Below are positions 1,486 to 42,353 of a stretch of DNA of 64,000 nucleotides, piece by piece. Numbering within the stretch: position 1 is the stretch's first letter; each line of letters begins with the position of its first letter. Below the pieces are notes generated by a model. That model worked only from the letters and a program-made list of their open reading frames with translations. It did not search any database and had not been told where the DNA came from. Position numbers and translations under genes: made by a program. The stretch covers positions 26,143 to 90,142 of the forward strand of contig JAPLWV010000051.1 in the NCBI GenBank assembly GCA_026396385.1, in the 5' to 3' direction. Source of the DNA: Candidatus Micrarchaeota archaeon. GTDB taxonomy: Archaea > Micrarchaeota > Micrarchaeia > Burarchaeales > Fermentimicrarchaeaceae.

Positions 1486-1486
1486 G

Positions 1487-2251
1487 CTAAACTTCCTCCG
1501 CAAACCTGGGTTCAAGTTTCATGAATATGAAATAACCTGCTAGTAAGGCCACGAAGGCAGTAACGTAGATGATTAGAATATCAGTAATGTTTGGCATTAT
1601 GTTGTATATCACTGTCTTTCTTGATGCTTCTATGATTCGTGCCATCGGATTGAGCAAGAACCAGCCTACATACTGCGGGGGGTATATGATCACTGGATAG
1701 ATGACTGGAGTTAGGAAGAAGCCTGCCCGCAGAAGAACTGCCCAGATGTACTGAACATCTTTGTAGTATACGTTCAGAGCGGATAGCGCAAGTGACAGGC
1801 CGACAACGATGACGAACTCGCCGAGTAATATGAATGGGAATATGAGTGCCGTTATGGGGGGGATGACCCCGAATAGGAGCATGAACAATAGGAAGACTAC
1901 AAGCTCAAAAAATACCATCAGCAGCGCTGTGGAACACATGCCAACAACAAGAACTTCCCTCGGAAAATAGACTTTCTTAATGAGGGTTGGTTTACTCGTA
2001 ATGCTATAAAGGCCCATCATGGTTCCTTTTTCCAAAAGGTCCCAGCAGATGATTCCGAGGAACAGGAAGAGTTGGTAATGCTCAACATTGAGCTTCATGA
2101 GGTAAGAGAATACGAAGTAAAGCACAATGAAGATGAGGAGAGGTTCTAGCAGTGACCAGAGCAAGCCGAGCACTGAATTCTTGTACCGGAGCTTCAGCTC
2201 GCTCAATGCTATTTTCTTAACAAGGTGCCTGTAGTTCCATATCTCAATCAT
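1487..2251 (-). CDS. ABC-2 type polysaccharide export permease (Wzm/TagG-like)
   Basis: Six hydrophobic segments. The N-terminus MIEIWNYRHLVKKIALSELKLRYKNSVLGLLW matches the ABC-2 family signature. The start ATG at 2251 overlaps the upstream GT4 stop as ATGA. The longer ORF to 2320 is probably an artefact. Confidence 0.8.
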   Translation of the reverse strand: MIEIWNYRHLVKKIALSELKLRYKNSVLGLLWSLLEPLLIFIVLYFVFSYLMKLNVEHYQLFLFLGIICWDLLEKGTMMGLYSITSKPTLIKKVYFPREVLVVGMCSTALLMVFFELVVFLLFMLLFGVIPPITALIFPFILLGEFVIVVGLSLALSALNVYYKDVQYIWAVLLRAGFFLTPVIYPVIIYPPQYVGWFLLNPMARIIEASRKTVIYNIMPNITDILIIYVTAFVALLAGYFIFMKLEPRFAEEV

Positions 2252-3333
2252 GCGGATATCTCCTCTTTGATTTTCTTTATAAATATCTCCTCTCGGAAGA
2301 GCTTTGCCCTTTCCTCGCATGCTTTTCTGTACTTTAGAGGATTCTTAGATACTTTCACTATCCCTTTTATTATATCTTTGATATCAGGTTTGACTAATTC
2401 ACCCGTAACCCCTGGCTCTACAGTTTCCAGGTAACCCCCTTCCGCAACTGCCACAACCGGCTTTCCGGCGGCCATTGCCTCGATTGGCGTTAAGCCGAAA
2501 TCCTCATCCATTGCCGTAACTATGAGACCTTTGCACGTGGAGTAGAGCTCTGCCAGCTTCTTGTCATCAACAGGCCCAAGCATTTTGATGTTAGATGGGA
2601 GTGCGGTGAACCTGCTCTGGTACGCCTCCGCATGGTCCCCAGCACTATATCCCCCAATTATCAGAAGCTTCTCTTTGGGCAACCTCCTGAAGGCTTCCAC
2701 CTGCAGTTCAATTCTTTTCTCAGGGTAGAGTCTGTTCACTGAAAGCCAGAAATCGCCGCTTTTCCTGAATTTGTACCTGCCAATCTGGACGGAGGGATGA
2801 ACCACCTTAGCGCCACGCCCATAGAACTTTCTCACTCTTTTCATGGTGTTTTCACTGTTTGTTATTATTTTTTTTACGTTCCTCACTGAGAGCTTATCGA
2901 AATAGGAGTGGATGCCGACCCATAGTAGGAAGAGAAGTTTAAAAAGCAGGTTGGGCTGCCTGTCCGCCATGGTATCCTTCAAATCGTAGAACGCCCTTAC
3001 CGGAGTGTGGCAGTACCACGTATTAGGTTTGTGCCTCCGTGCAGCATAGTGCGCCCAGTTACCGCTGAAAATAAAGAAATCATATTTTTCTGAAAAATTA
3101 CAAAATGCGAATAGTAGTGAGGCGTGAATCTGCTTTAGGGGCGGTATTTTCAGTGTCCCGCCCAGGCTTATAACACGCACATCCCCAAACCCCATCTTCC
3201 TTATTGAATCCTCATTGGCATCAGTGGTTATGACATCTGCACGCAAAGCTCTGGCCAGAGTGAGGACTGTCTTTTCCCCTCCCCCAATTGCATCTATGTA
3301 GTCATGAAATATCGCTATTCTCATCTTAGGCAC
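2248..3333 (-). CDS. glycosyltransferase family 4 (GT-B, retaining)
   Basis: C-terminal E-x7-E type motif region DEDFGLTPIEAMAAGKPVVAV, typical of the GT4 / group 1 family. Confidence 0.8.
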   Translation of the reverse strand: MPKMRIAIFHDYIDAIGGGEKTVLTLARALRADVITTDANEDSIRKMGFGDVRVISLGGTLKIPPLKQIHASLLFAFCNFSEKYDFFIFSGNWAHYAARRHKPNTWYCHTPVRAFYDLKDTMADRQPNLLFKLLFLLWVGIHSYFDKLSVRNVKKIITNSENTMKRVRKFYGRGAKVVHPSVQIGRYKFRKSGDFWLSVNRLYPEKRIELQVEAFRRLPKEKLLIIGGYSAGDHAEAYQSRFTALPSNIKMLGPVDDKKLAELYSTCKGLIVTAMDEDFGLTPIEAMAAGKPVVAVAEGGYLETVEPGVTGELVKPDIKDIIKGIVKVSKNPLKYRKACEERAKLFREEIFIKKIKEEISA

Positions 3334-4432
3334 GGTAAACTTCCTCCAACCTCTTAGCTATACTGCTCCATTTGTATTCATCAGGTTTAATTTTCACCTT
3401 CATCCCAAACAGCTGTTCTATTCCGTCCGCTATAGCTTTATCAGCTAGTTTTACAACTTTTCCATTGACTCCGTCTTTCACAAAGTCTTTAACCGCATTG
3501 TCGTCACTATCAACTGTCAGAACGGGAACTCCGCAGGCATTTGCTTCCAAAGCAACCATGCCAAAGCCCTCTCTGCTGGATGGCAGGGCGAGCACTTTGC
3601 TGGATTTTATGTATGAAAAAACCTTCTCATGGGCCGGGAGGAAGTTATAGAAATTTATATTGTTTTTTATTTTTAGAGAAGATACAAGATTGACAAGGTT
3701 TGATTTCTCTGGGCCTTCTCCAATTACGCAGCACCTTATTTTCGGATGTTTTGTTCTCAAAAGCGCAACAGCTCTCAGGAGCACATCAACATTTTTTTCT
3801 TTTATCAGCCTCCCTATGAAGATTACATCGAAATTCTTTTCTAGGGGCTTTGCCTTCTTCAATGATTCATAATCCACTCCGTTTGGAAACACAGGTATCT
3901 TCTTGTCCACTTTTCTCATAATCTTTCTTCTCGTAAATTCAGATACGGATATTATGTTGCTTGAGAGCGTAAGAGCCAGCCTTTCTACAATTTTCCCGCA
4001 AAACCCAAGAGGCCATCCCAGGTATTCATACCAGTAATCGCCCCATAGCTCGTACCAAGTTACGAACAGTTTAGACCCTTTTATTTTTGATACGATTTTG
4101 CATGAGAAAACCGGGAAATAGGGGAAACTCTGGCAGTTTATAACATCGAATCTACCTTCCTTTAGCAAAGCTGGAATTAAGGCTAGGGAGAAATGGATTG
4201 GTTTTAGTATAGAACGCCTTCCGCTGGCGGTGTAGAGTGGAGCAGGGCTGCATACGCCGTGCAGGTAAACTCCTTCTCTCTCTATGATATCCGGACCCTT
4301 CCAGAATTTAATTCCAAAGCAGTGAACCTCATGACAGTGGGAACTAAGCTCCTTTGAGATTTCATATATTCCGATCTCCACCCCTCCCTTTGTATATGGA
4401 TAAACTGCATCGTACACAAACGCTATCCTCAT
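3326..4432 (-). CDS. glycosyltransferase family 4
   Basis: REGFGMVALEANACGVPVLTVD motif. 8-bp overlap with the downstream GT4, consistent with an operon. Confidence 0.8.
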   Translation of the reverse strand: MRIAFVYDAVYPYTKGGVEIGIYEISKELSSHCHEVHCFGIKFWKGPDIIEREGVYLHGVCSPAPLYTASGRRSILKPIHFSLALIPALLKEGRFDVINCQSFPYFPVFSCKIVSKIKGSKLFVTWYELWGDYWYEYLGWPLGFCGKIVERLALTLSSNIISVSEFTRRKIMRKVDKKIPVFPNGVDYESLKKAKPLEKNFDVIFIGRLIKEKNVDVLLRAVALLRTKHPKIRCCVIGEGPEKSNLVNLVSSLKIKNNINFYNFLPAHEKVFSYIKSSKVLALPSSREGFGMVALEANACGVPVLTVDSDDNAVKDFVKDGVNGKVVKLADKAIADGIEQLFGMKVKIKPDEYKWSSIAKRLEEVYRA

Positions 4433-4442
4433 TCCATCCCCC

Positions 4443-5594
4443 TCATTCCTTCTTCGGAAGGACCAATATGCTTAGGAAGAATGCAGAGAAGATTGCCTGC
4501 ACGCCGAGAATTATAAGAGTTGACGAGAAGAGCGCCCTCCGCACTTCAAAAAGCGGTCCGAAGTTGCTGAGCACCCATAAATAGATTATGTCAAAACTTA
4601 GTATTACTCCCAGAACTATCATCATAATTCCCAGGAAAGAAGCTTTCTCCAGAGAGAGGTGCTTGTAGATAAATTCGATTAGCTTATCCTCTTCTTCTAA
4701 GTGGGATACAACAGCGTAGGTTTTTGTGAAGAGCCCCATTATCAGAACCTGAAAGCCGACTATGGCAAGAAGGCTTGCTATAATCATGGGGTGTAAATCA
4801 AGTGTAGTGCCAGCTATGGTCACGGGGCCTGGCACAAGGGCTAAGAGAAGGACTAAAGCGACTATGAACATGAGAGTGCCGGGTATTATGAAAAGGTAAT
4901 CCGGCGAGTACAGGAGCATAAACCTCAGATGCCTCCATCCATCGCTGAAGGAGGAGAGCTTTGACTGGGCTTTTCTTGGGTGGTATGTTATTGGAACCTC
5001 AGCTATTCTCAGCTTCTTCTTCACTGCCTTGACAATCATCTCAGAGGCGAATTCCATTCCCGTTGCATGCAAATCCAGCTTTTCAAAAGCATCCCTTCTT
5101 ATTGCTCGGAAGCCCGTGTGGACATCGCTTATGCTGGCACCAAAGAATGTGTTCAGGATGAAGGAGAGCAATGGATTGCCGATGTACCTGTGAAGCCACG
5201 GCATGGAATTAGGAAGAATTCTGCCCTTCACGCGGGAGCCTAGCACCAAATCCGCCTTGTTCTCGCGAAGGAACTTTATGAATCTAGGTATTTCGTGGAA
5301 ATCATATGTATCATCCGCATCACCCATTAGGATGTATTCTCCTTTCGCTGCCTCAAAGCCAGCCATGTATGCACTACCGTACCCTTCAGTGGGGGATTTA
5401 ACTACCTTCACTCCCATTCTCCTAGCTATTTCCGGCGTTTTATCCGTAGAAGAATCCGCGACAATTATCTCTCCTTTTATGTTTTCCCTTCTGAAAACCT
5501 CCACAATCTTACTTATGCAGTCTGCTATTGTGGTCTCCTCATTCTTGGCCGGCAATATCACGGAGAACTCAATTGTGTTTCCCAATCTTATCAC
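4443..5594 (-). CDS. GT2 glycosyltransferase of Dol-P-sugar synthase type (DPM1/AglJ/AglD-like) with C-terminal transmembrane anchor
   Basis: N-terminal GT-A motifs VILPAKNEETTI, DSSTDKT and DADDTY (DxD), followed by about 4 TM helices. Confidence 0.75.
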   Translation of the reverse strand: MIRLGNTIEFSVILPAKNEETTIADCISKIVEVFRRENIKGEIIVADSSTDKTPEIARRMGVKVVKSPTEGYGSAYMAGFEAAKGEYILMGDADDTYDFHEIPRFIKFLRENKADLVLGSRVKGRILPNSMPWLHRYIGNPLLSFILNTFFGASISDVHTGFRAIRRDAFEKLDLHATGMEFASEMIVKAVKKKLRIAEVPITYHPRKAQSKLSSFSDGWRHLRFMLLYSPDYLFIIPGTLMFIVALVLLLALVPGPVTIAGTTLDLHPMIIASLLAIVGFQVLIMGLFTKTYAVVSHLEEEDKLIEFIYKHLSLEKASFLGIMMIVLGVILSFDIIYLWVLSNFGPLFEVRRALFSSTLIILGVQAIFSAFFLSILVLPKKE

Positions 5595-5628: not shown

Positions 5629-7875
5629 CTATGTTCTAACGAAGGATATTTCTATTTTCTCTATGAGCACACCAAGAGTCCGGAGGTCTGCTGTAAAGTT
5701 AGAGTAGTCCGCGGGCACCCACGTGTTGCTGTAAAATGAAAGTGTGGTGAGTTGGTGGGATTTGTATTTTTTCACATCAAAATGCAACTCTTCAAACTGA
5801 GTCTTGTTCAGGGTTAGATTTTCGAGTTGTAAATCGTTTATCTGGATTGTGAAGTTCAACTGGACTTCCTTCGGGCTACGATCTGCGAGCGTGATGTTGA
5901 TGTCCTTTACCACCCATCTCCCCGGTAGGCTTATGGATGCGTTTCCGTTTGTCCATCTGGATTTTCTACCCCCGACATTTTCAAGGTCATGAAAGCCCGT
6001 TGCCGAGAACAAATCGAGAGAATCACTCATTTCTATTGTAATTGCAGAGCAGTTCTCCCCGCATAGTATCGACTCGTCATGGTATCCACTCACAACCACG
6101 AAAGTTTCATTATCCTTTTTTTCAGTTACGTTATACTCAAAGAATGGGTATATATTCTTCTTTATCCAATTCGCCCACTCGGGATGCCAATCCATACTGT
6201 GCAGGTAGATTGTTCTGTTGTTCTGGAGTCCGTAATCCATAACTGCAAATACGGAAGATTTACTATCTATATGTGCCGCAGCAATCCAAACATCCTTAGA
6301 TGCTTTCAAGGGCACCATTCTAAATGCGCTTGGTCCATATGAGATGATTACGCTTCTGCCATCAATGATTGAATCCGCCTTCGTTAATAAGTTGAGCGCA
6401 AGCGAACGGACAGAACTTTCATAGATAGAAAATTCAAATACGTAGTTTATTAGGAAAGAGACAGGTATGGATAGTAAGACGATTAATAGCAGTAGTATTG
6501 CGACGTATCTCCCCAACTCACGCCTCTTTGTTAACAAGAAAATTATGGAGAGGAGAGAAATCGATATGGCGAACAAAGTTAGCTCTTCTAGCACGTGCGC
6601 TTCCGAATCTCTGAAATCGTTGTACCAGTCTTGCATGTACGGAGGAAGCAGATTTAGGAAAAGGATTCCGCTTATGAGGATAACGGCAAATGTGGAGTTC
6701 TGCATTCTCGGAAAATTGAGGTTAATAAGTTTATTTGATACTCTAATTATTTCAGCCAAGGATATCACGGACAATACCACTAGTGGTGGAATCGCCTCAA
6801 GGAGATAGCGAGTGTTGTGGATTGGTCCTCCGTGGTGCGTGTGGGTGGTGTAATATAAAATCTGCATTATGGGTATCCCGCATAGGACGAGAAGGTAATC
6901 GAATTTCTTATCCTCCCACAGCTTATTAGCACCAATGAGGCATATTGAGAGGAAGGGGGATGACTGTAGAAGGGCTTTTGTTAGACCGTCAGCATACACT
7001 GTTGATTGCATAGCTATCCCATCCACATTTGTGAATGATTGCGTGTCGAATATGTATTTGTAGAGGATTTGTAGGTGCATCAGAATTCCACTGAAAAAAC
7101 CATGAGAGTATACCCCGATTGCGGTTTCACTATTTACGTAGGAGGGAGTGTAGCCTGTAGAGAATGGATTTCCGAAACGTATTATGTTCGATATTGCGAG
7201 CAGGAAAAGGGCAGGTAAGGTGGAGAGGAAGGAAATCAGGGATTTGTAATTCTTCGCTATAACTAGGATTATGAGGGGTAAGAAAAACATGGCATTTGTG
7301 TACCTTATTCCGATTGAGAGAGCCAGTATGAATGCAGAGATGGCCGTGTCCCAGTACGTGACTCTCTCTTTAAGCAATAAGTAGAACGGCGCTAAAACTA
7401 AGAGAGCGGACAGCATGTGCGGCCATATGGCAGTTGCATATTGCGGGGAGAATGTGCAGAAAGAGAATATTAGAATCGCAGCTATCCCCCACCGGTCTCG
7501 GTACTTCAGCCCGTGCATAACTGAATAAATAATCCAAAGAATCGCAGAGAACGAGAGGGTATTCAGGAGGAAAAGCCCGCGTAGACCGAATAATGCAAAG
7601 AATGGATAGGCCATGAATCCATAGTTGCCGGGGAATGAGGGGTAAAGATTATCGTTGTTTGTCCACCAAGGGAATATATATATGCTTCTGAATTTCAGTG
7701 CTGGATAGCCATTCTCGACGTTGAATCCCTGTGGCAATTGACTGGCCTGGAGAAAGTAGCTTGCCTCATCAATCATGTATAAGCCAGGAACGGTTTTTAT
7801 TACGAATAGCAATGTGATGGCGAGGATTAGGAATTTTATGCGAAAGTCTATTTTCTTAGTTTCTTGCAGACGCAT
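5629..7875 (-). CDS. polytopic GT-C superfamily glycosyltransferase, PMT_2 / GT39-GT83-like (748 aa)
   Basis: At least 12 predicted TM helices. The first extracytoplasmic loop carries YMIDEASY (the DE motif of PMT/ArnT-type GT-C enzymes). About 270 aa of C-terminal soluble domain. Confidence 0.6.
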   Translation of the reverse strand: MRLQETKKIDFRIKFLILAITLLFVIKTVPGLYMIDEASYFLQASQLPQGFNVENGYPALKFRSIYIFPWWTNNDNLYPSFPGNYGFMAYPFFALFGLRGLFLLNTLSFSAILWIIYSVMHGLKYRDRWGIAAILIFSFCTFSPQYATAIWPHMLSALLVLAPFYLLLKERVTYWDTAISAFILALSIGIRYTNAMFFLPLIILVIAKNYKSLISFLSTLPALFLLAISNIIRFGNPFSTGYTPSYVNSETAIGVYSHGFFSGILMHLQILYKYIFDTQSFTNVDGIAMQSTVYADGLTKALLQSSPFLSICLIGANKLWEDKKFDYLLVLCGIPIMQILYYTTHTHHGGPIHNTRYLLEAIPPLVVLSVISLAEIIRVSNKLINLNFPRMQNSTFAVILISGILFLNLLPPYMQDWYNDFRDSEAHVLEELTLFAISISLLSIIFLLTKRRELGRYVAILLLLIVLLSIPVSFLINYVFEFSIYESSVRSLALNLLTKADSIIDGRSVIISYGPSAFRMVPLKASKDVWIAAAHIDSKSSVFAVMDYGLQNNRTIYLHSMDWHPEWANWIKKNIYPFFEYNVTEKKDNETFVVVSGYHDESILCGENCSAITIEMSDSLDLFSATGFHDLENVGGRKSRWTNGNASISLPGRWVVKDINITLADRSPKEVQLNFTIQINDLQLENLTLNKTQFEELHFDVKKYKSHQLTTLSFYSNTWVPADYSNFTADLRTLGVLIEKIEISFVRT

Positions 7876-7885
7876 CGTATCTCCC

Positions 7886-10414
7886 TCATGGCGATTTTTT
7901 TATTGATATCTCTTCTATTATGGTTCCAAGCTCCCGCATGTCGCCATTCTTGATGAATTTTTCGGGTATCCAAGGTTCTGATTGTATCAGAAGTTCGGAG
8001 TATGGTCCGGTGGTACATTCCGCTGATATTTGTAGAATATTATCACCATCTGTCAAATTGCTTGAGAGAAGGCACTTGTTGAAGTAAACGGAGATATTCA
8101 TTGGTGCGTTTAGTGGTTTTTTGGAGTTGTCTATTCTAATGCGCAATGTATAGTCTGAATCCGCAGGTGTCGGGAAGGTAATGTGTGCATTCTTCATCGT
8201 CCACCTGAACTCCCTTCCGTCCGATGAAGTCTCGCAACTGAAGAACCCTGTGATGTAGGGGTAGTGGGAGGGACAGAAGTGGATAGTAATCTCGCCCTCC
8301 TGCAGGGCGACATCGGAACTTGTTACTTCGAATAAATCGTAAGATATCTTTCGCTGGGTTATGTTTTGCGGGAACCCGTACTGGGTTCCTTCCCCCATGA
8401 GAGGTACTTCTATTCCTTTACTTTCTTTGTAATTGAGGAACAAGCCAAAGTTTATCAACTTGTCAGCCAGGTTGTCAGAGGGATTTAGAACATATATCTT
8501 ATGGTCCTCGCTCTGCCACTTTTTGAACTGATTCCCGATAGCGGAGTAGTTGTGGTTGTATACAATGAGTGACTTCCTATCGAATATGTAGTTTAGAGGT
8601 GCGGATAATTTCAGGGATTGCCAGTTATACTTGTCAAATACCAATATAGAATTATTTTCCGTGGAGTTTGAGATTCCCTGGATGTAGTTAATCATCCCCT
8701 CATACTCGACATGGTTGAGGAGAGGGTAATTTGGTTGGATAGATAACAGTGTTAGAATCCCTAAGAGGATCCAGAAAATTATTTTTCCAAGAGGTTTCTC
8801 TTTGAAGGAGAGTTTGGATACGGATTCCGCGAGGTATGCAATGCATACCAGAATGAACGGTATTACGACAGGCACGAACCTCCTTATCCACCACGGTTGA
8901 TCGGCATACATTTTGGCGTTTGCTATGAAATAAACCGAATAGATAAGCATAACTCCGAGGAATAAGTACGTTTCGTTGTATGGTTTTTTGTAGAGAAGGA
9001 GGATTGAGCCGCACACGGCCAGTATTATTCCGATGGGGCCTGCTACGTACCAAGAGATTTTAACCATGTTGTACGTATCCACTATCCCTTCCGTGGGTCT
9101 TATGAAGAACGAGTAGAGTATCGCTGTGATGATGAGAAAAGCTACAAGGTACTGTAGGTATGGTAAAAGCTTCCTGAATCCTTTCAATTTTTTTGATATT
9201 TGGCTTCGGAAAAAATCAAACACAAAAAGAATTAAGAAGGTAAGTAGAATGAGAATCGCGAATAGATGAGGTTGTTCGATTAGGGCTGACTCATAGCTGA
9301 AGGTTACCCGGAATATGTCATATGTGTAGGGGGTGGATACCGCCAAAGCAGTGAGGAACGCAGAGATGAACAGAACTGAAAAAGGAATAATGAAGTAGAG
9401 ATATTCCATTTTCAATTTCTCCTTTATCCTGAGATATACGAAGAAGAGGAAAAGCGGAGCGGCGAGCAGAAATGCGTCAATTCTCGTCAAGAAGATTCCA
9501 CCCAAGCACATTGCTGAAATTATTCCGAAGTATTTGTTATGAGTTCTGTTGAATAAGATAAACAGAGCCAACCCACTGAATGTTAGCAGTTGGGTGAAAA
9601 CCTCGGTACTTGGCTCGCGGGCGTACCATATTTCGGCGAAGTTCAGGATTAATAGGAACGTGGAAAGCAGAGCAACTTTATCGTTGAATAACAGTTTTAT
9701 TAAGAAGAAAACGCTCAGCACAGCCAGAATTGCGAAAATGGGTGTTATGTAAAGGCTTGATTCCAGACCGAATAGCGAGTAGAGTATTGCTATCCAAGTG
9801 GGGTACAAGTATAAGAACTGCGGAGTTATCTCCCCCCTGTCTTTATCTGTGATATAGAAGCCCAGGTACTGGAGGCCTTGGTGGTAGGATTTGTTCAGGA
9901 TTTCTACTCTTTTCTCCATTATATAGAAAACATCTCTTGAGGAATCATTCATATCACTCAAAATTGGATCGTTGATAACCACCGAGCCGGTTTTTGCAAT
10001 GTTCGCCCCCGTATTAACATAAACTCCTTGGTCCCGCCCCCCGACTATCCACTCGTACGGCTTGAGGAACAAAGACGACGCAAGAAGAAGGAGGATTATC
10101 AGCAGGATTGAGGTAGAAGTTAAGGCGGGTTTTTGGAATAAATTCGTATCGAACCGACCATACGATTTAATAGCGAGTGGTATGCTCACCAAGAGCAGCA
10201 GCACGGTAAGGTTCGGGATGGAGAAGAAGCCCAGTTCAGCTAGAATCAGCCCCAACCACCCCGAGAGAATTATGTTGCCTAGAAGGATTGAAAGAACTGT
10301 TTCAAGAAATCCGAGCTTTAATTTTTTATTATGGAATGCGCAGTATAGCAAGAAACCTGGAATTAAGAAAATCAATAGTGATACGGGCAGAAGAAAGGCA
10401 GTTGAAACATCCAT
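7886..10414 (-). CDS. large polytopic membrane protein, probable GT-C glycosyltransferase (842 aa)
   Basis: Many TM helices in the first ~560 aa. Acidic first loop GGRDQGVY. About 280 aa of C-terminal soluble region rich in N-x-S/T. Adjacent to other glycosylation genes. Confidence 0.5.
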   Translation of the reverse strand: MDVSTAFLLPVSLLIFLIPGFLLYCAFHNKKLKLGFLETVLSILLGNIILSGWLGLILAELGFFSIPNLTVLLLLVSIPLAIKSYGRFDTNLFQKPALTSTSILLIILLLLASSLFLKPYEWIVGGRDQGVYVNTGANIAKTGSVVINDPILSDMNDSSRDVFYIMEKRVEILNKSYHQGLQYLGFYITDKDRGEITPQFLYLYPTWIAILYSLFGLESSLYITPIFAILAVLSVFFLIKLLFNDKVALLSTFLLILNFAEIWYAREPSTEVFTQLLTFSGLALFILFNRTHNKYFGIISAMCLGGIFLTRIDAFLLAAPLFLFFVYLRIKEKLKMEYLYFIIPFSVLFISAFLTALAVSTPYTYDIFRVTFSYESALIEQPHLFAILILLTFLILFVFDFFRSQISKKLKGFRKLLPYLQYLVAFLIITAILYSFFIRPTEGIVDTYNMVKISWYVAGPIGIILAVCGSILLLYKKPYNETYLFLGVMLIYSVYFIANAKMYADQPWWIRRFVPVVIPFILVCIAYLAESVSKLSFKEKPLGKIIFWILLGILTLLSIQPNYPLLNHVEYEGMINYIQGISNSTENNSILVFDKYNWQSLKLSAPLNYIFDRKSLIVYNHNYSAIGNQFKKWQSEDHKIYVLNPSDNLADKLINFGLFLNYKESKGIEVPLMGEGTQYGFPQNITQRKISYDLFEVTSSDVALQEGEITIHFCPSHYPYITGFFSCETSSDGREFRWTMKNAHITFPTPADSDYTLRIRIDNSKKPLNAPMNISVYFNKCLLSSNLTDGDNILQISAECTTGPYSELLIQSEPWIPEKFIKNGDMRELGTIIEEISIKKSP

Positions 10415-10484
10415 CGGCTCACGACAAGTTTGTATTTATCATCTTATATCAAAGTTTAAATTCTTAACTATTGATATCCTTATT

Positions 10485-11420
10485 GTGAAGCTGGCTATTG
10501 TTATACCCGCACACAACGAGGAGAAAACCATAGGCAAAGTCATCCGCGAGATCCCGAGGAGGATACCGGAAATTAAGGAAGTGGAAGTGATAGTGGTTGA
10601 TGACGGCTCCACGGATAGAACGGTCTCTGAAGCACTCAAGGCTGGAGCGGATAGATTCGTACAGCATAAGGTAAACAAAGGTTTGGCAGTCTCTTTCAGG
10701 GATGGATTGGATGCCGCTTTGGAGAGCGGGGCAGACATCATAGTGAACACAGATGGAGATTTCCAGTACAACCAAGGGGAGATTCCAACGTTGATAAAAC
10801 CTATAATGGATGGAAAGGCGGACTTGGTGCTGACTGACAGAAATGTTTGGAACCTGCGGCATATGCCCGTGAGTAAAAAGATCGGAAATAAGATCGCAAC
10901 TTATATTGTTAGGTTCCTGGCAGGTTTCCCAGTAAAAGATGCGCAGAGCGGTTTTAGAGCTTACTCGAGAGAAACGGCCTTGCAACTGAATATTCTTTCC
11001 GATTATACCTATGTTCAAGAGATGATAATACAGGCAGTATTCAAGAAAATGAAGATAGCGCAGGTTCCTTGCGATTTCAGGGCGAGAGAGGGGGAAAGTA
11101 GGCTTATCAGTAACATCTGGTCATATGCGAAAAGAGCGGGGTTGACAATTGTTCTGACTTACGTTCATTACAAGCCATTGAAAATTTTCTTGAGCATTGG
11201 ATTGTTTTTGATGCTGTTGGGCTCGGTTCTCGGACTGAGAGTGCTGATCCATTACCTCTCAACTGGCTTAGTTAGTCCGTATATCCCGACGGCAATCCTG
11301 ACTGCCATCCTGTTGATAGTGGGATTTCAGGTTTTAATGATGGGTCTGGTAGCGGATTCTATTAACGCCAACCGAAGGATTATGGAGAAGATCTTGTATT
11401 TAATGAAAAGAAACAAGTGA
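10485..11420 (+). CDS. GT2 glycosyltransferase, dolichol-phosphate sugar synthase-like, C-terminal TM anchor
   Basis: IVIPAHNEEKTIGKVI, VVDDGSTDRT and NTDGDFQ (DxD) motifs, then 2 TM helices. The ORF track start at 10062 overlaps the convergent 842-aa gene. The first in-frame start after that gene ends is GTG at 10485. Confidence 0.75.
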   Translation: MKLAIVIPAHNEEKTIGKVIREIPRRIPEIKEVEVIVVDDGSTDRTVSEALKAGADRFVQHKVNKGLAVSFRDGLDAALESGADIIVNTDGDFQYNQGEIPTLIKPIMDGKADLVLTDRNVWNLRHMPVSKKIGNKIATYIVRFLAGFPVKDAQSGFRAYSRETALQLNILSDYTYVQEMIIQAVFKKMKIAQVPCDFRAREGESRLISNIWSYAKRAGLTIVLTYVHYKPLKIFLSIGLFLMLLGSVLGLRVLIHYLSTGLVSPYIPTAILTAILLIVGFQVLMMGLVADSINANRRIMEKILYLMKRNK

Positions 11421-11426
11421 TAACGC

Positions 11427-11978
11427 ATGGGTTTATTGTCACCTTTTTTAAGAAAATGGAGAATAAGGAAAGCGTCGAGATGGGTACAGGGCAAAAGAAT
11501 TCTCGATTGTGGATGTGGCGATGGTAGTCTATTGGGTATAATCGGCGAGAATGTGGATTACCTGGGAGTGGACATAAACGAAAAAGTGATAAATGAGGCG
11601 AAAGGGAGATACAGGGGGGCAAACTTCATTTTGCTTAATGTGGAGAAGGGAGATTTGGGGAGGTATGGTAAATTCGACTCGGTAGTTGCATGTGCATTAT
11701 TGGAGCATTTGAACAATCCTAAAAAATTTATATCCAAAATTGTCAAACTTCTCTCTAGAGATGGGAGAATTATAATCACAACTCCAGCACCCATTTCACA
11801 TAATATATTGGGGTATGGGTCTACTATTGGAATTTTCGAAAGGGAGGCTTTTGAAGAGCATAAACATTACTTGATTTACGATGATTTTAGGAGGATGGCA
11901 AAAGAGTTAAAACTTACTATAAAGCATTATGAGAGATTCCAATTTGGCCTAAACCAACTTGTTGTCCTATCAAAATGA
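11427..11978 (+). CDS. class I SAM-dependent methyltransferase
   Basis: Motif I ILDCGCGDGSLL; post-I acidic residue (LGVDIN). Confidence 0.75.
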   Translation: MGLLSPFLRKWRIRKASRWVQGKRILDCGCGDGSLLGIIGENVDYLGVDINEKVINEAKGRYRGANFILLNVEKGDLGRYGKFDSVVACALLEHLNNPKKFISKIVKLLSRDGRIIITTPAPISHNILGYGSTIGIFEREAFEEHKHYLIYDDFRRMAKELKLTIKHYERFQFGLNQLVVLSK

Positions 11979-12061: not shown

Positions 12062-12589
12062 ATGAATAGATACTCCAGAATTCTGTTGATAGCAGCGGAA
12101 GTAATCCTAGGCTCACCAATCTTCTGCTTGCCTGTCTTCAGCCATCTAAAAAACGGCTTCTTCAGATTAGTTCTGAACGCGGACATAAATTTGAGTGTCG
12201 GCGACAGCACATTCATAATCCCGATACATGCAAGTGAGAGAAGTTTCATAAAAATTGGCAGTAATGTTAGGGTTGAGAGAAATTCTTTGGTGGATTGGAG
12301 CGGTGAACTCGAGATGGGATCGAATGTCACAATATCACAAGGAGTTTTCATCTATACCCACAAGCATCAATTCGCTGCGGGAAAGGGAGTCGGAGAAGCA
12401 TCGGCGACTAGTATGAGAATTGGCAGTAACGTTTGGATTGGCGCAAGGTCGATAATACTGCCTTCCGTAGAATGCATCGGGGACAATGTGATGATAGGTG
12501 CAGGCTCCGTGGTTACTAAAAGTGTTGAAAGCGGCGCCGTAATTGTCGGAAATCCTGCGAAAAATATTAAGGAGATAACACTCAGTTAG
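12062..12589 (+). CDS. hexapeptide-repeat (left-handed beta-helix) sugar O-acetyltransferase
   Basis: Tandem hexapeptide repeats IGSNVWIGARSIILPSVECIGDNVMIGAGSVVTKSV, as in the WbbJ / maltose or galactoside acetyltransferase family. Confidence 0.75.
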   Translation: MNRYSRILLIAAEVILGSPIFCLPVFSHLKNGFFRLVLNADINLSVGDSTFIIPIHASERSFIKIGSNVRVERNSLVDWSGELEMGSNVTISQGVFIYTHKHQFAAGKGVGEASATSMRIGSNVWIGARSIILPSVECIGDNVMIGAGSVVTKSVESGAVIVGNPAKNIKEITLS

Positions 12590-12657: not shown

Positions 12658-14103
12658 ATGAAGACAAGCGTGAGCAAAGGCACTTTTTATTTGCTGGTAG
12701 CACAAGCTATCTTTCTAGGGGTAGGATATGCAGTCCACATAGCTTTAGGGAGATTGATGGGCCCTGAACTGTATGGTGTCTTTGGAGTTGTTCTTGGGTT
12801 GATGTCTATTGTGATGTTGATTCCCAGCTCGGGAGTTCCAATTGCAGTTTCAAAATTTATATCCTGCAATGAGAAGAGTGCTGGAAGCATACTGAAGGAG
12901 AGTCTGAAGATACAGCTTATTCTATGCACAGTAATCTTTCTGATTTATTTCTCATCTGCTGGCCTGATAGCAACCGCACTTTCAGATGAGAGGTTCATCC
13001 TTTACGTGAGGCTCACCTCTGTCTCGATATTCCTTGTTGGCATCAGCAGCGTTTATTCTGGCTATTTGAACGGAGTTAGGCACTTCGGGAAGCAGAGCCT
13101 TGTTTCGATAGCGCATTCCCTGACGAAATTGACCGCCATTCTCTTAGTAGTGATGGGGCTGGGGGTTCTGGGGGCTGTTTTTGGGTACCTGCTCTCCTAT
13201 CTTGCAGCCCTCCTACTGGCGCTCTGGTTTAGCAGATTGGTAACGGGGGATGGAAAATTTGAATGGAGAAAGATTCTGTATTTCTCAATGCCTGTGATAG
13301 CGTACTCAGTTTTCAGCAATCTCTTGCCGAATATTGACATACTCATGATTAAATCTTTACTTAGGAATGACAGTTTAGTCGGCTACTACAACTCAGCCTC
13401 AACAATCGGGAGGCTGTTCTACTTCTTGGTGGGAACTCTGTTTGCAACCCTCATACCGGCCATTTCGGTTTCGATAGCAGCCGGGAACCAGAAAAAGGCC
13501 AACAGATACGTCACGAGTTCCATAAGGTACAGCCTTATGCTGCTCATTCCAATAAGCCTAGTGGTGAGCGCAACTGCGAGCGATTTGGCCTCTTTTGTCT
13601 ATTCAAGCGCATTTGCGCAGGCGGGAGAGCCCCTCTCCATCTTCATTTTCGGCATAAGCTTTTTCACTTTATTGAGTGGATTAGCTAGTATGCTGATCGC
13701 AGCGGGGAAACCGAAGCACTGTATGCTTATACTCGGATTGGTCTGTCTGCTCTCTCTTGCGTTGAACTTTCTCTTAATACCAGTGATGGGAATAAAGGGA
13801 GCAGCTCTGGCATCAACAATTAGCAGTTTTGTGGGCTTGGTTGTTGCCTACTATTATGTCACGGGAGAATTCGGATGTCTTATCAGCATGAAGTCTCTTG
13901 CTAGAATATCACTAGCTTCCCTCTTGATCTACCTGCCGAGCCTATACATTGTACTCCCAAACAAATGGCTCCTTCCACTAGAATATGCTTTTCTTTTCGG
14001 GTTTTATTTTGTAGTTCTAATTGTAATTAAAGAATGGAGGAAGGAGGATTTTGAGATAATTAAGAAACTTGTTCCGAAAAGATTCAGTACAGGTATCCTT
14101 TAA
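12658..14103 (+). CDS. MOP-superfamily oligosaccharide flippase (Wzx/AglR-like polysaccharide biosynthesis protein)
   Basis: 481 aa, about 12-14 TM helices, and the overall topology and length of the Wzx/RfbX family, within a glycosylation cluster. Confidence 0.7.
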   Translation: MKTSVSKGTFYLLVAQAIFLGVGYAVHIALGRLMGPELYGVFGVVLGLMSIVMLIPSSGVPIAVSKFISCNEKSAGSILKESLKIQLILCTVIFLIYFSSAGLIATALSDERFILYVRLTSVSIFLVGISSVYSGYLNGVRHFGKQSLVSIAHSLTKLTAILLVVMGLGVLGAVFGYLLSYLAALLLALWFSRLVTGDGKFEWRKILYFSMPVIAYSVFSNLLPNIDILMIKSLLRNDSLVGYYNSASTIGRLFYFLVGTLFATLIPAISVSIAAGNQKKANRYVTSSIRYSLMLLIPISLVVSATASDLASFVYSSAFAQAGEPLSIFIFGISFFTLLSGLASMLIAAGKPKHCMLILGLVCLLSLALNFLLIPVMGIKGAALASTISSFVGLVVAYYYVTGEFGCLISMKSLARISLASLLIYLPSLYIVLPNKWLLPLEYAFLFGFYFVVLIVIKEWRKEDFEIIKKLVPKRFSTGIL

Positions 14104-14115: not shown

Positions 14116-15441
14116 TCATGTGGAGTTTATTTCTTTAGCTTTGTTCATAGCGCTTCTTATGCAAGCAGCCATGTTCATGTACTTAAACTCCGCGAATCTG
14201 CCGCAGGATTCGATTCTTCTCTTCTTAAGGAATTTGAACACTTTTGAACTATTCTTATTGTAATCCAAATCGTATATTACGTAAGCGTACTCCGACCTTC
14301 TGACATTCCTGTAGGATATCTTCGAATTCCTTGCGAAACCCAGCCTCTCCAAATCCTTTACGACTTGCTTCAAAATTTTATCATCGCTCTGTTTCAACAA
14401 CGGGTCGTTGGGGAGGCAGGTTATCTCCACCAGTACGGATGACTTGCCTTCTGGAGCGACATACCTGGAGAAATTGAACGGGAAGCTCAACCTGTTGAAG
14501 TCGCCATCTTCCTCAGCAGGTATGTACATCCAAGAGATGTTGTTTATCCTCGGCTCGTCAATCCCAACCATCACCGTGATGAGGGAGTTGTATTTCAGGT
14601 TGTTTTTCGCTTCTTTCACATCCTTCGGCACTCCATCCATGGAATCTATCAAGTCAGGAATGGGCATGCAGGAAACAAGCTTGTCATATTTTCTCTCCTC
14701 CTTTCCATCTGAAACAGTGAATTTACCTCCTTCCCTTGCAACTGACTTCACTTCAAAATTGTATGTAATCTTATCTCTGAGCTTCTCCTCCATCGGCTTA
14801 ACAAGCGCATTTATTCCTCCCTGAATTGGATAGTAGAAAATGAGGTTCTGGTGGTATCCTTCAGTTTTGATTCCAAGAGACGATTTTATTATGTCTTCAG
14901 CAGGCGGCATGGGTATCCCGCTTGCCAGCAACTCCAGAGACAGTTTTCCAGGAGGGTAATTCCAGATTTTTCTGTTGTAGGGGATGAGGTATTTCTCAGT
15001 TATCCCTTTCCCGAATGTATAATACATCCACTCCTGGAAATTTGTTGGTTTCTTCACCTTTCCCTTGCTCACTTCTATGAGGTTTTTAATAAATGATGAA
15101 ATGCATTCGTAATTGTCCTGCTTGGGCAGCTGGTAAAGACCATTCTCAAACGGGTATTTGATGTACCTTCCCTTGAAAAGAATCTTGGAGTTTCTCTTCC
15201 TTTTCACCCAGTTTCCGTGAAGCAATTTTCGGTATAAATTGAAAACATCCTTGTCCTTTGTGAATATCACATGAGAGCCGCCATAGTCAAAGGTGAACCC
15301 TTCCTCGGTCAGGCTTCTGCAGAGTCCTCCGCACTCAGAATTTTTCTCCAATATCTCAAAATCCTTCTTGAGATGGAAACCCAAAGTCAAACCGCTTAAG
15401 CCGCCACCAAGAATGCCGATTTTCATGGAAAAACCTTTCAT
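14116..15441 (-). CDS. glf: FAD-dependent UDP-galactopyranose mutase-like flavoprotein
   Basis: N-terminal Rossmann IGILGGGLSGLT. Glf-like blocks ECGGLCRS...YGGSHVIFTKDKDVFNLY and C-terminal GRFAEFKYMNMA (compare E. coli Glf GRLATYKYYNMD). The true start is possibly MKIGIL at 15426. Confidence 0.55.
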   Translation of the reverse strand: MKGFSMKIGILGGGLSGLTLGFHLKKDFEILEKNSECGGLCRSLTEEGFTFDYGGSHVIFTKDKDVFNLYRKLLHGNWVKRKRNSKILFKGRYIKYPFENGLYQLPKQDNYECISSFIKNLIEVSKGKVKKPTNFQEWMYYTFGKGITEKYLIPYNRKIWNYPPGKLSLELLASGIPMPPAEDIIKSSLGIKTEGYHQNLIFYYPIQGGINALVKPMEEKLRDKITYNFEVKSVAREGGKFTVSDGKEERKYDKLVSCMPIPDLIDSMDGVPKDVKEAKNNLKYNSLITVMVGIDEPRINNISWMYIPAEEDGDFNRLSFPFNFSRYVAPEGKSSVLVEITCLPNDPLLKQSDDKILKQVVKDLERLGFARNSKISYRNVRRSEYAYVIYDLDYNKNSSKVFKFLKKRRIESCGRFAEFKYMNMAACIRSAMNKAKEINST

Positions 15442-17390
15442 TTTACAACCTTATAAATTTTAACCTCTCCAGCATCCTTGACCAGTTCTAGATAGGGTAT
15501 CGTTGAGTTCGTGTACATGAGATTGAAGAAGACCCTGTTCTCTGTCTGCATGGGCATCCTTATGAAGAGATCCGCGAACATGAAGAGATAATCATCATTG
15601 AATTCAACTCCGCCGAGTGCACTCGTGAAGTACAGGTTTTTGTCAGTAAACGCACCAAAATCCTTGTAGTAGACCTTCCTGCCACCCGTATATTCATCCC
15701 AGGCAACATTTTTGATGGGGTCGTAGTATGTTCTAAACCCTGTGCCGAGTTTTGCGGAGTATAGGCCACCTGCTCGTGAAGGTGGAGCCATGCTGAATTC
15801 TATTTTTTCATTCAGGAATTTCTCCGAACTACCTATCCTCGTGAGGTAACCCCTGCTCACCACAACATAACTCACATTATATCTCTCCAGTATATCGTTG
15901 GCTTTATCACCATTATTCGTTCCAAAGAATATCATCTGGTCATCAAATCTGCCTTGGGGCTGGTTGTTTACCACTGTCTTTCTTTCTGCGATTCCATTTA
16001 CCCACTGCGAGTAATCCCACCAGCTCATCACCACAGCATCCTGATTGGAGTTGTTCTTCAGCCACTGCATTGAAGTATACCAGTCGTCCGAAACAGAGTG
16101 GTGCACTATTTGCGGGGGGTAGAAAAGCACTGCGGAGAGTATCATTACTGGTATGAAAACGTCTTTTTTGACTGATGAGCTTGCAATATCAGAAAACCTG
16201 TTTAGCAGGTATGCCGAGAATATTGAGACGAAGATGCCGGCATATTGGAGGAATCTTATTGCAGTGGAAGCCAGCAATGCGAGGAGGGCGAAGGATACAA
16301 GGAAGAGCAGGGTTGCCCTATTGAATTTCTTTAAGGAGGTTAAGAATAGAATCAGCCCGACCAGGAAGGGCAGAAGCTGCAATCCATAATGCTGGGATAT
16401 GTTTGTTAGGGTGGGTGTTTGCAGTTCGGCTACACTTTCGAGGTATATACCTTTCTCCCTCAGACCCATGTAGGCCAGTCCCGCATCCACAATTGAGCTC
16501 TTGGAGAGAATCAGGAAGGGAAGCGAGCATAGCAGCACTATTGCGAGCAATATCACGAACGCGTTTCTGTTATTTTCAAGCCTAAGGGCCACATAGGAGA
16601 AAAGGGCTGAGAACAGCATCATCCCCAGGAAGGGCATTATGCCAAAACCATACCAGAGAGAAGCAATGACGGCAAAAACAATTGACAGGACAAGAAAACC
16701 GATGGTAACATCCTTCTCCAGAAGCTTTAGGTATGGGTTGAAGAGGGAGATGGCTAGCATGAATGCAGAAAGGATGACCACAACCAAGGGAAAGCCTGTC
16801 CAAGTGAGAGCGAACAGTCCAGTGGAAACCCCTGCCAGTGCATAATAGACTAGCTTTTCTTTATTTTCCATGAATCTCTGGTCTGATGGGGGGGATGAGG
16901 AGGAAGCAGTGGGCTTCTTTATAGCTTTTACGAAATAGAAGAATGCCGAGGATACGAAGAGATAATCCAATGGGTCATGGTCGGAGTAGCCGAAGTAGGT
17001 TGTTCCTTTAAAAATTGGGAGAACTGCCAGCAGCATTACTGCCAGCATTGCAGTCCTCTCATCAAACACTTCCCTTGTGAACAGAAAGACGAATATGAGA
17101 GCAAGCGCAGCAGCCAGCAGTGGGTATATCTGCGAGACCAGCATCACATTCAAGCCTGGAAGATGCGCTGGGATGGCAAGCAGGTAATGCAGAAGGGGTG
17201 GGTATAGTATATTCTCACCCATGTTTGACAGCGGGTCGAAAGACGGCCTTGTGCCCTGCTCAAATGTGTATTCCGCTAGCCGGTAGTGGTACCAGGGGTC
17301 GAAGTCTCGCAGGTATGGAACAGTTGTAGTTGTAAGGGCACCTACCACAATAACAAGAAAGATGGCTGCTAGGAGTTCAATTTTCATCAA
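15438..17390 (-). CDS. aglB: AglB/STT3-family oligosaccharyltransferase, short paralogue (650 aa) with WWDYS variant of the WWDYG motif
   Basis: 13 TM N-terminal domain. The EL1 segment is RDFDPWYHYR. C-terminal globular part has VMSWWDYSQW. Confidence 0.7.
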   Translation of the reverse strand: MMKIELLAAIFLVIVVGALTTTTVPYLRDFDPWYHYRLAEYTFEQGTRPSFDPLSNMGENILYPPLLHYLLAIPAHLPGLNVMLVSQIYPLLAAALALIFVFLFTREVFDERTAMLAVMLLAVLPIFKGTTYFGYSDHDPLDYLFVSSAFFYFVKAIKKPTASSSSPPSDQRFMENKEKLVYYALAGVSTGLFALTWTGFPLVVVILSAFMLAISLFNPYLKLLEKDVTIGFLVLSIVFAVIASLWYGFGIMPFLGMMLFSALFSYVALRLENNRNAFVILLAIVLLCSLPFLILSKSSIVDAGLAYMGLREKGIYLESVAELQTPTLTNISQHYGLQLLPFLVGLILFLTSLKKFNRATLLFLVSFALLALLASTAIRFLQYAGIFVSIFSAYLLNRFSDIASSSVKKDVFIPVMILSAVLFYPPQIVHHSVSDDWYTSMQWLKNNSNQDAVVMSWWDYSQWVNGIAERKTVVNNQPQGRFDDQMIFFGTNNGDKANDILERYNVSYVVVSRGYLTRIGSSEKFLNEKIEFSMAPPSRAGGLYSAKLGTGFRTYYDPIKNVAWDEYTGGRKVYYKDFGAFTDKNLYFTSALGGVEFNDDYLFMFADLFIRMPMQTENRVFFNLMYTNSTIPYLELVKDAGEVKIYKVVK

Positions 17391-17404: not shown

Positions 17405-18448
17405 CTATTTCATGCTGAACCTGAGGATTCCTGCTATGCCCGACATGCCCGTCAGTTGCTTTCCAGCTTCACTTTCCGAGCTGAAGATGAATATCTCTGC
17501 TTTCATCTTCTCAGAATCTTCCAGCAGCTTCTCAACCTCCCTCTCCTTCCTCAGGAGCTCGTCAACCACCAGAAGCTTCGCAAGGGCTCTGCATTCAACT
17601 GCATTTCTGACTTCCCCAACTCCATAAACCGCAAGCCCGCTCTCCTTTGATAGCTCTCTGAGGAAACTCTCCAGAACAGAGAATTCCTCCTCCATTTTTT
17701 GCTCCTTGACAATTTTTGAGAGCGCACCCTTCTTAAGCAACTCGTATACTCCGCTCTCCTCGGCTGTGCTGCTGGACTCGAAATGAAGCTTCTTCAGAAG
17801 CTCCTCATCCCTCTCAGCTATGAACTTCTTGAGATTGTCCTTTGCAAAACCCGGTCCAGCAACAACAATTTTACTAACCTTCATGCTAGTGAGGTGTTTA
17901 GCTATATCGCCGAAGAACTGCTTCCCCTTCTCCTCGAATTTCTCATCGCCTTTTGATGCATGACTGCTGAGCTGGGGGCCGAACTCGACCCCATACTCCC
18001 TGACAAGCGCAAAGAGGGCTTTCCCTTCGTCTAAAACAAGAATCCCAAGCTGGGGTTTCTTTGAGCTGTTCTTAGCCTTCTCAATTCTCTGCAGCTGGTA
18101 GCTCTTCCACTCCTTCCTTATCTCAACCGGTCTTTGAAGCTCAACCTCTATGGTGTGGTGCTTTCCAATCTGTATGTAATCCTCAGGCTCCCCCCCAGTT
18201 ATTTTTCCAGTAACCCTCAGAGCATTGGAGAACTTGCTGAATTCTACCTTCTCTGCCTCCAACTGTATCCTTACCTTCTTCCTCTCACCTTCCTCGCCTT
18301 CCTCCTCGGATACCTTGAAAACCCGTGTGGAAGAGGATGAAACAACATCTCCGGGCTCCAGCACCCTCTCCAAATGCCATAGGTCCTCCAGAACCTCCGG
18401 TACGAGTTTCATCCTTCCTTCCTTTCTGTCGAAGCTCAGAACTTTCAT
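17405..18448 (-). CDS. pelA: Pelota (archaeal Dom34 homologue), no-go / non-stop ribosome rescue factor
   Basis: N-terminal MK..VPEVLEDLWHLERVLEPGD block characteristic of Pelota. Three-domain length (347 aa) with an eRF1-like central and C-terminal region. Confidence 0.8.
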   Translation of the reverse strand: MKVLSFDRKEGRMKLVPEVLEDLWHLERVLEPGDVVSSSSTRVFKVSEEEGEEGERKKVRIQLEAEKVEFSKFSNALRVTGKITGGEPEDYIQIGKHHTIEVELQRPVEIRKEWKSYQLQRIEKAKNSSKKPQLGILVLDEGKALFALVREYGVEFGPQLSSHASKGDEKFEEKGKQFFGDIAKHLTSMKVSKIVVAGPGFAKDNLKKFIAERDEELLKKLHFESSSTAEESGVYELLKKGALSKIVKEQKMEEEFSVLESFLRELSKESGLAVYGVGEVRNAVECRALAKLLVVDELLRKEREVEKLLEDSEKMKAEIFIFSSESEAGKQLTGMSGIAGILRFSMK

Positions 18449-41990: not shown

Positions 41991-42353
41991 CTAAATATAT
42001 ACCTTCTTGAGCAGCCTGTCACCAACGCGTATTTTTCTCCTTTTAGCCCCACCTGCCCCCATCTCAAGTATGTATCTAGCAGGCTTAGCAGGTGTTATTT
42101 TTAATGCGAATGGCTTTATGCGCTCCCTGATGTCCACAACAACTCCTTTTGAGTTTAGGAAAACTGCATCAAAGGGAAAGAATACAAAAAGGGAGTGGAT
42201 TGAGCTGAGTTCTGCTGATTCCGAGGGCATAATGAAGAGCAGTGGTTTTGAAATACTGCTTCTGAACATCAGCCCCCTCGCCCTCTTGAAAAATGTGTCA
42301 GCAAGCTCGAGCTCATCTTCCAAATCGCCTTTTCCTCGTCTCATAGTACTCAA
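41991..42353 (-). CDS. DUF192 (COG1430) family protein
   Basis: ADTFFKRARGLMFR motif; 120 aa. Confidence 0.55.
   Translation of the reverse strand: MSTMRRGKGDLEDELELADTFFKRARGLMFRSSISKPLLFIMPSESAELSSIHSLFVFFPFDAVFLNSKGVVVDIRERIKPFALKITPAKPARYILEMGAGGAKRRKIRVGDRLLKKVYI

Follow-up and report, generated by a model that had tools for sequence, protein, structure and literature searches.

The stretch of DNA analysed here (hereafter the window) spans 64,000 nucleotides of contig JAPLWV010000051.1 (positions 26,143 to 90,142) from a Candidatus Micrarchaeota archaeon, a small organism of symbiotic type (assembly GCA_026396385.1), and encodes two proteins of the STT3/AglB family, the catalytic subunits of N-oligosaccharyltransferases (OSTs). 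These are a short form of 650 aa, hereafter AglB-S, in which the signature motif of the family reads WWDYS, and a long form of 889 aa, AglB-L, with the usual WWDYG. The presence of both, originally predicted from the sequence, was confirmed by open reading frame (ORF) analysis, by Pfam searches and by a six-frame scan of the window in which the WWDY motif was found in only these two ORFs. To our knowledge, N-glycosylation has hardly been studied in Micrarchaeota, a DPANN lineage. The features of the aglB-S gene, matched where possible to those of Archaeoglobus fulgidus AglB-L (AfAglB-L) and including residues of external loops 1 and 5 (EL1 and EL5), are as follows.

15438..17390, minus strand: aglB-S, short STT3/AglB oligosaccharyltransferase, identified by Pfam and PDB matches and by AlphaFold2 (AF2) modelling with Foldseek
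17298..17300, minus strand: D31 in RDFDPWYHY, first DXD/EL1 catalytic Asp, paired with D47 of AfAglB-L (NDPWY) and with EFDPW of Stt3
16974..16982, minus strand: D137-H138-D139, second DXD metal-binding motif, paired with D161-H162-H163 of AfAglB-L
16425..16436, minus strand: S319-V-A-E322, EL5 TIXE/SVSE motif, paired with T-I-A-E of AfAglB-L
16254..16256, minus strand: R379, conserved Arg, paired with R426 of AfAglB-L
16008..16022, minus strand: WWDYS motif, W457-W458-D459-Y460-S461, codons TGG TGG GAT TAC TCG
15813..15854, minus strand: helix 513-526 (RGYLTRIGSSEKFL), kinked-helix/DK-motif region, located by AF2 secondary structure and by comparison with relatives and AfAglB-L

The length of 650 aa is counted from a TTG codon. 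An ATG is located one codon downstream, at 17387; because this ATG follows a GGGGT stretch by 8 nt and fits the start of the orthologues, which begin with MKIELL, a protein of 649 aa appears to be more likely. AglB-S matches the Pfam families STT3 (4e-20), AglB_core-like and PMT_2. The closest NCBIfam model is TIGR04154 (archaeosortase-A-associated OST), with 177.5 bits for AglB-S and 84.9 bits for AglB-L, both below the curated cut-off of 450, so that this is a nearest model only and not an assignment of the proteins to that family. Scans of the window for tRNAs and Rfam families yielded no matches.

Apart from the last residue of the WWDYG motif, the active site of AglB-S appears to be complete. 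The family profile aligns with AfAglB-L over the whole membrane domain and the core (E = 3.5e-46), with WWDYS placed opposite WWDYG, and all tested catalytic and substrate-binding residues align with those of AfAglB-L, yeast Stt3 and human STT3. Across 39 diverse archaeal and eukaryotic STT3/AglB homologues (alignment A2), E322, W457, W458, D459 and Y460 are invariant, E322 also in alignment A1, and D31, D137 and R379 are conserved in at least 90%; the counterpart of R379 in AfAglB-L, R426, lies near the phosphate site (PMC8342417). The original prediction held that absence of the acidic residues of EL1 and EL5 would mark the protein as a pseudo-enzyme; the alignment shows both, D31 and E322, in place. 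The AF2 model of AglB-S (mean pLDDT 88.4, pTM 0.87) consists of helices through residue 422 followed by an alpha/beta domain, and its best Foldseek matches in the PDB are AfAglB-L structures (7e9s, 5gmy and 3wak; E ~1e-21, TMq 0.68-0.71), after which come the STT3 proteins of yeast and human and PglB; the top 19 matches are all OST catalytic subunits. The stretch that follows the motif, TVVNNQPQG, fully matches neither the DGGK nor the DNXTZNX(S/T) consensus, and N476 in this stretch is placed opposite the Asn by which human DNNTWNN contacts the backbone of the acceptor. The hydrogen bonds with the peptide are made by the W, W and D of the motif and not by its fifth residue (PMC3703281; bioRxiv 10.64898/2026.09.03.749169). 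Altogether, AglB-S looks like a working OST, and on these other features the protein is kept in the STT3/AglB/PglB (GT66) family, for which the motif as commonly written, WWDYG or WWDXG, appears to be too strict.

The fifth residue of the motif in AglB-S, Ser461, is encoded by TCG, which is two substitutions away from any Gly codon (GGN). In nine other loci from independent samples, the same position is either Ser, encoded by TCC, TCG or TCA, or Ala, encoded by GCT in two loci with an identical protein. Among the 14 orthologues that cover the motif (55-91% identity), 13 contain WWDYS and one WWDYA. All homologues with a named source come from Candidatus Micrarchaeota/Micrarchaeia. A scan of species-representative genomes detected the AglB-S family in five genomes, all of Micrarchaeota, one of which is the complete genome of Ca. 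Fermentimicrarchaeum limneticum Sv326. Nei-Gojobori comparison of aglB-S with the orthologues of 91% and 88% identity gives a dN/dS ratio of 0.19-0.20, with similar values in the membrane part and the C-terminal domain. Thus, Ser461 is real, inherited and under selection.

To assess the rarity of this substitution, 1.84 billion representative proteins were searched with a profile; 6,091 homologues were obtained, the best 150 of which were read. Among these best 150, a residue other than Gly in the fifth position is found in two groups only, namely the AglB-S family and one unrelated protein with LWDYN. The AglB-S family members in this set carry either WWDYS (P0010, P0014 and P0100) or WWDNS (P0112 and P0113); P0112 comes from a Micrarchaeota metagenome-assembled genome. 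All 84 other homologues retrieved by two word-index searches contain WWDYG. In a neighbor-joining tree, a quick reconstruction without support values, all Ser-bearing proteins, including the distant ones with WWDYS or WWDNS, form one clade that has WWDYG proteins as its sister group and is nested within a large radiation of short (520-630 aa) WWDYG AglBs; the AglB-L family is a separate, distant clade. Because the Ser-bearing proteins form a single clade with a WWDYG sister group, the Gly appears to have been lost once, in a Micrarchaeota lineage. Where the source is named, the Ser clade appears to be confined to Micrarchaeota related to Ca. Fermentimicrarchaeum.

As a separate observation, about 15 of the best 150 homologues vary elsewhere in the motif (GWDYG, RWDVG, LWDYG, NWSYG, WADYG, WWWYG and WTDYG), and a canonical WWD is missing in P0155, P0168, P0173, P0174, P0177, P0189, P0202, P0203, P0210, P0213, P0217, P0218, P0233 and P0242. 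Judging from these sequences, the "invariant" motif shows greater plasticity among metagenomic homologues than would be expected from the literature.

The published record presents a stricter picture: the motif is described as strictly conserved (PMC3527161), and reviews write it as WWDXG, with variation in the fourth position only (PMC5131992). Within the library searched, no paper was found that mentions WWDYS or WWDYA, and nothing relevant on a G520 mutant. Precedents exist for multiple AglBs, for short AglBs and for variation of the motif; the novelty lies in a DPANN clade with a naturally conserved Ser or Ala where the Gly was supposed to be fixed, combined with a shortened DK helix.

Of the two walls of the Ser/Thr pocket, one is formed by the WWDYG element and the other by the DK element (PMC3703281; PMC8342417), and the latter is altered in the Ser clade as well. 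In the AF2 model, the strand 508-512 (YVVVS) runs straight into helix 513-526, an arrangement like that of the kinked helix in AfAglB-L. The sequences that follow this strand compare as follows.

Nearest WWDYG relatives: D-x-x-M-(L/I)-(T/S)-G-K-(W/Y)-Y-A
AfAglB-L: D611-I-E-M-E-T-G617-K618-Y-Y-A
Basal members of the Ser clade: D-x-x-M-L-S-K-I
Subgroup that includes the window protein: S-R-G-x-L-x-(K/R)-I, with R518 in AglB-S
AglB-L family: D698, K704 and L708 invariant, K704 being equally far from the strand

The Ser clade has a one-residue deletion by which the Gly that precedes the signature Lys is lost. The signature position is basic in 14 of the 15 orthologues, and R518 would be the equivalent of the signature Lys (K618 in AfAglB-L and K704 in AglB-L), with the caution, voiced by the authors of the motif, that variant DK motifs are not safely assigned without a three-dimensional structure. 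With K/R518 taken as the signature basic residue, both paralogues would have a Lys-type pocket. An alternative register, obtained by ungapped extension of the yeast Stt3 alignment, in which D583-x-x-K586-x-x-x-M590 is placed on E523-x-x-L526-x-x-x-I530, would imply an Ile-type (MI-like) pocket and would have broken Kohda's rule of the "same pocket type in all paralogues". This register was rejected given that helix 513-526 directly follows the strand in the AF2 model and that the D-x-x-M-x-x-G-K register of the relatives maps onto K/R518. The Ser clade differs also downstream of the motif, where the next residue is P or Q, compared to H, N or Y in the relatives, and VNNQP corresponds to NPxQxG. 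Because the replacement of Gly by Ser and the deletion share one lineage, the simplest reading of the two changes would be a compensated remodelling.

The soluble domain of AglB-S is indeed short (about 215 aa). The original prediction described it as truncated, which fits only in a loose sense: the terminal strands are present and align with the C-terminus of the core unit of AfAglB-S2, and the protein belongs to the radiation of natural AglBs of 520-630 aa, so that the domain is a compact natural architecture and not the product of truncation. In the AF2 model, the core unit additionally contains an inserted beta-rich segment, residues 533-612 (about 80 aa). In the membrane domain, AglB-S is the more canonical of the two proteins: the Pfam STT3 score is 73 bits compared to 27 bits for AglB-L, and AglB-S matches AfAglB-L in the PDB at 3.7e-17, a search in which AglB-L gave no match to the full-length AfAglB-L chains. 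Accordingly, the labels "second" and "truncated" are misleading for AglB-S.

The gene for the long paralogue lies on the opposite strand, in a different part of the window.

47016..49685, plus strand: aglB-L, 889 aa, in which residues 641-645 (nt 48936-48950) are WWDYG; D132, E248/E250, TVAE433 and K704 conserved in the family
42313..46957, beside aglB-L: cis-prenyltransferase, PMT_2-like membrane protein, methyltransferase, GT2 resembling Dol-P-hexose synthase, and a geranylgeranyl-reductase-family enzyme

The aglB-L gene is divergently paired with the geranylgeranyl-reductase-family gene, an arrangement that recurs in two other loci (L009 and L010), and a long run of nucleotide-sugar genes is located nearby. 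Inside the rhamnose operon, the window additionally encodes a free-standing HNH + NUMOD3 endonuclease (57193-57924, plus strand), flanked by an RmlD-like gene (56309-57196) and a gene similar to dTDP-glucose dehydratase (57912-58874); this gene looks like a homing-endonuclease insertion.

AglB-S and AglB-L are only 25-27% identical, and both retain the catalytic residues. At least two further Micrarchaeota genomes have both genes on a single contig, separated by 20-35 kb (a JGI contig of 74 kb and CAVXDX010000007.1, 105 kb); the AglB-L family is more widespread in Micrarchaeota than the AglB-S family. The original prediction proposed two N-glycosylation pathways with distinct glycans or targets. 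The divergence of the paralogues, the retention of catalytic residues, the separate gene clusters and the conservation of the pair on contigs make two N-glycosylation routes plausible, and these may differ in glycans or targets.

Among the characterised enzymes, AfAglB-L (O29867; PDB 3WAJ, 3WAK, 5GMY and 7E9S) is the best match to AglB-S by both sequence and fold. The two proteins share the 13-helix GT-C membrane domain, the residues of the two DXD motifs, TIXE, the conserved Arg and WWD, and probably the kind of DK helix, which in both begins right behind the YVVx strand. AfAglB-L differs in its length of 868 aa with extra peripheral units, in WWDYG, and in the sequence E613...G617-K618...M622, whereas AglB-S, with 650 aa and WWDYS, has no Gly preceding the signature basic residue, which is Arg and not Lys, and lacks the acidic first signature residue. 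AglB-S also resembles AfAglB-S1 and AfAglB-S2 (591 and 593 aa; PDB 3VGP and 3VU0), compact OSTs with a soluble domain that consists essentially of the core (CC) unit and which likewise share a genome with a long paralogue; the C-terminal domain of the AglB-S family scores 72 bits with AfAglB-S2 (Foldseek TMt 0.73) compared to 55 bits with the C-terminal construct of AfAglB-L. However, these short enzymes contain WWDYG and lack the additional beta-rich stretch. Several catalytic subunits per cell that share out donors and acceptors have been proposed or shown for Trypanosoma brucei (STT3A, STT3B and STT3C) and mammals (STT3A and STT3B), but those paralogues are closely related and all have WWDYG, in contrast to the ~26% identity between AglB-S and AglB-L. 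The WWDNG motif of Methanococcus AglB demonstrates natural motif variation in active enzymes (PMC5131992), although in the fourth position, whereas AglB-S varies in the fifth.

The surroundings of aglB-S comprise genes for glycan synthesis on one side and Pelota and ABCE1/RLI on the other.

295..5594, minus strand: GT2, GT4, GT4, ABC-2 permease (Wzm-like) and ABC ATPase with a Wzt_C domain
5629..10414, minus strand: two multi-pass membrane proteins, 748 and 842 aa long, assigned to the LA_3751/LA_3752 family of putative glycosyltransferases and weakly matching PMT_2
10062..11420, plus strand: AglJ-like GT2 (polyprenyl-phosphate hexose synthase type)
11427..11978, plus strand: SAM-dependent methyltransferase
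12062..12589, plus strand: hexapeptide-repeat acetyltransferase
12658..14103, plus strand: Wzx/MurJ-type polysaccharide flippase
14116..15441, minus strand: eukaryote-type UDP-galactopyranose mutase (UGM) homologue, matching Trypanosoma cruzi UGM 4dsg at 7.7e-41
17405..18448, minus strand: Pelota (aPelota/eRF1 family), immediately upstream of aglB-S, synteny anchor
19791-21563, plus strand: ABCE1/RLI, synteny anchor

The neighbours named in the original prediction, that is, Glf, Wzx, an acetyltransferase and a GT2, were all recovered, Glf being the eukaryote-type UGM homologue. At 15438-15441, the sequence ATGA contains both the start codon of UGM and the stop codon of aglB-S, an overlap that suggests translational coupling of the two genes; in relatives, the two genes are at least 12 nt apart. 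The order ABCE1/RLI-Pelota-aglB-S-UGM is retained in four other loci (L001, L002, L011 and L012), and beyond UGM, the genes for glycosyltransferases and sugar modification differ even among relatives with ~90% identity. In particular, the window contains a module of about 8.5 kb (5629-14103) between UGM and the GT2-GT4-GT4 genes, and in L012, which encodes a 91% identical AglB-S, UGM directly adjoins GT2-GT4-GT4; the glycan cluster is therefore strain-variable. The first ~120 codons of the ORF for the AglJ-like GT2 (10062-10414, about 350 nt) overlap the oppositely oriented gene for the 842-aa protein; the GT2 domain starts at residue 144, and translation probably begins inside the listed ORF. 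Both membrane proteins of 5629-10414 (842 and 748 aa) were considered as additional OST copies and ruled out, having neither a WWD motif nor an STT3 match.

From the observed sequence features, conservation, selection, fold and synteny, we infer an activity for AglB-S, the identity of its glycan, a division of labour with AglB-L and a structural role of the Ser. AglB-S is probably a catalytically competent, single-subunit N-oligosaccharyltransferase of the short AglB type, in which the replacement of Gly by Ser was accompanied by a change in the DK helix. In such an enzyme, D31, D137 and D139 would hold the metal, E322 of EL5 and R379 would position the acceptor Asn and the lipid phosphate, and W457, W458 and D459 would bind the Ser or Thr in the +2 position. 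The WWDYS motif would sit in the first turn of a helix beside the kinked DK helix, and the Gly was changed to one of the two smallest side chains. The lipid-linked glycan would be made by the adjacent, strain-variable glycosyltransferase cluster and, because the UDP-galactopyranose mutase gene is apparently translationally coupled to aglB-S, would probably contain galactofuranose; AglB-S would move this glycan onto the Asn of N-X-S/T sequons. AglB-L would then be the second OST of the same cell, with a cluster of its own for the carrier lipid and nucleotide sugars.

Several points weigh against this interpretation. In Campylobacter jejuni PglB, the G461D replacement within this motif leaves a well-expressed but inactive protein (PMC3527161), so that the fifth position is not freely mutable. 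The acidic first residue of the DK signature is missing in the subgroup that includes the window protein, its place being taken by R513-G514. The Gly to Ser replacement and the loss of GK co-occur as a single event in one lineage, which by a crude count gives no statistical covariation. That S461 touches the DK helix and that R518 is the pocket residue are predictions from alignment offsets only. Finally, purifying selection can act on a pseudo-enzyme as well.

Among the alternatives, it is possible, if rather doubtful, that AglB-S is functional but redundant with AglB-L, transferring the same or an overlapping glycan, with its expression restricted to certain conditions. Several copies of aglB are present in more than 30 archaeal genomes, and not every copy is expressed constitutively (PMC5131992); A. 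fulgidus itself has short AglBs beside the long one (PMC3703281). Against this reading, the pair persists in at least three genomes, with orthologues that are only 59-70% identical, and aglB-S has its own conserved partner (UGM), its own cluster and a dN/dS of ~0.2; moreover, the small genomes of DPANN archaea presumably would not keep redundant genes of 2 kb.

Neofunctionalisation, another possibility raised in the original prediction, has no direct support, and the only hint in its favour is the co-occurring remodelling of the DK helix. Under this scenario, which we regard as unlikely, WWDYS and the DK-helix change alter acceptor recognition, for instance in the +2 or +3 position, and the two OSTs differ in sequon or target and in glycan. 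The fact that the two remodelled elements jointly make up the pocket for Ser/Thr in solved structures (PMC3703281) is compatible with such a shift, as are the differences of the Ser clade downstream of the motif (P/Q in place of H/N/Y, and VNNQP in place of NPxQxG). However, W457, W458 and D459, through which the +2 hydroxyl is hydrogen-bonded, are unchanged, and the signature position remains basic in nearly all orthologues (14 of 15). The boldest version of this scenario, that remodelling of both pocket walls changed the acceptor rule so that the cell runs two systems of N-glycosylation, distinct in sequon or target choice and in glycan, one of the glycans being galactofuranose-containing and strain-variable, is quite improbable; if true, such a glycan could matter for contact with the host.

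It is very unlikely that AglB-S is a pseudo-enzyme that kept the fold and lost glycan transfer together with the Gly. The inactive G461D variant of PglB and the description of the motif as strictly conserved (both PMC3527161) would fit this explanation, but all residues involved in metal binding, catalysis and sequon binding are retained, only Ser or Ala, the smallest replacements, are seen in the fifth position, purifying selection is equal in both domains, and the gene appears to be translationally coupled to that of a sugar-nucleotide enzyme. A sequencing or assembly error at the Ser codon, which the original prediction had kept in mind, is refuted because TCG lies two changes away from the Gly codons and ten independent loci from different samples encode a clade-conserved Ser or Ala with synonymous codon variation.

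The AglB-S clade shows that Ser or Ala is tolerated in nature in the position of a Gly treated as fixed, apparently with a change in the neighbouring DK helix, and the Ser together with the DK deletion provides a ready-made pair of mutations for model OSTs such as AfAglB-L and PglB. The current understanding of the OST mechanism is not overturned by these observations. The analysis further documents a stable pair of very divergent OSTs in Micrarchaeota, each with its own gene cluster, and the surface glycans of these archaea may be relevant to symbiosis.

Beyond the synteny anchors, the window encodes a 1355-aa M6-type metallopeptidase with three Laminin_G_3 domains (22212-26279, minus strand), located near a gene for a 610-aa serpin (27961-29793, minus strand); a serpin is encoded in the corresponding place in two relatives (L002 and L011). 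The closest WWDYG relative detected by word-index search is a 598-aa protein (P0016) encoded by the gene 8001-9797 of L013, a 15-kb Logan contig from SRR27899019. This contig also carries genes for a family-A DNA polymerase fused to uracil-DNA glycosylase (UDG) and for FolE-, QueD- and QueE-like proteins, a set typical of DNA-modifying viruses, and P0016 is thus possibly a virus-encoded OST.

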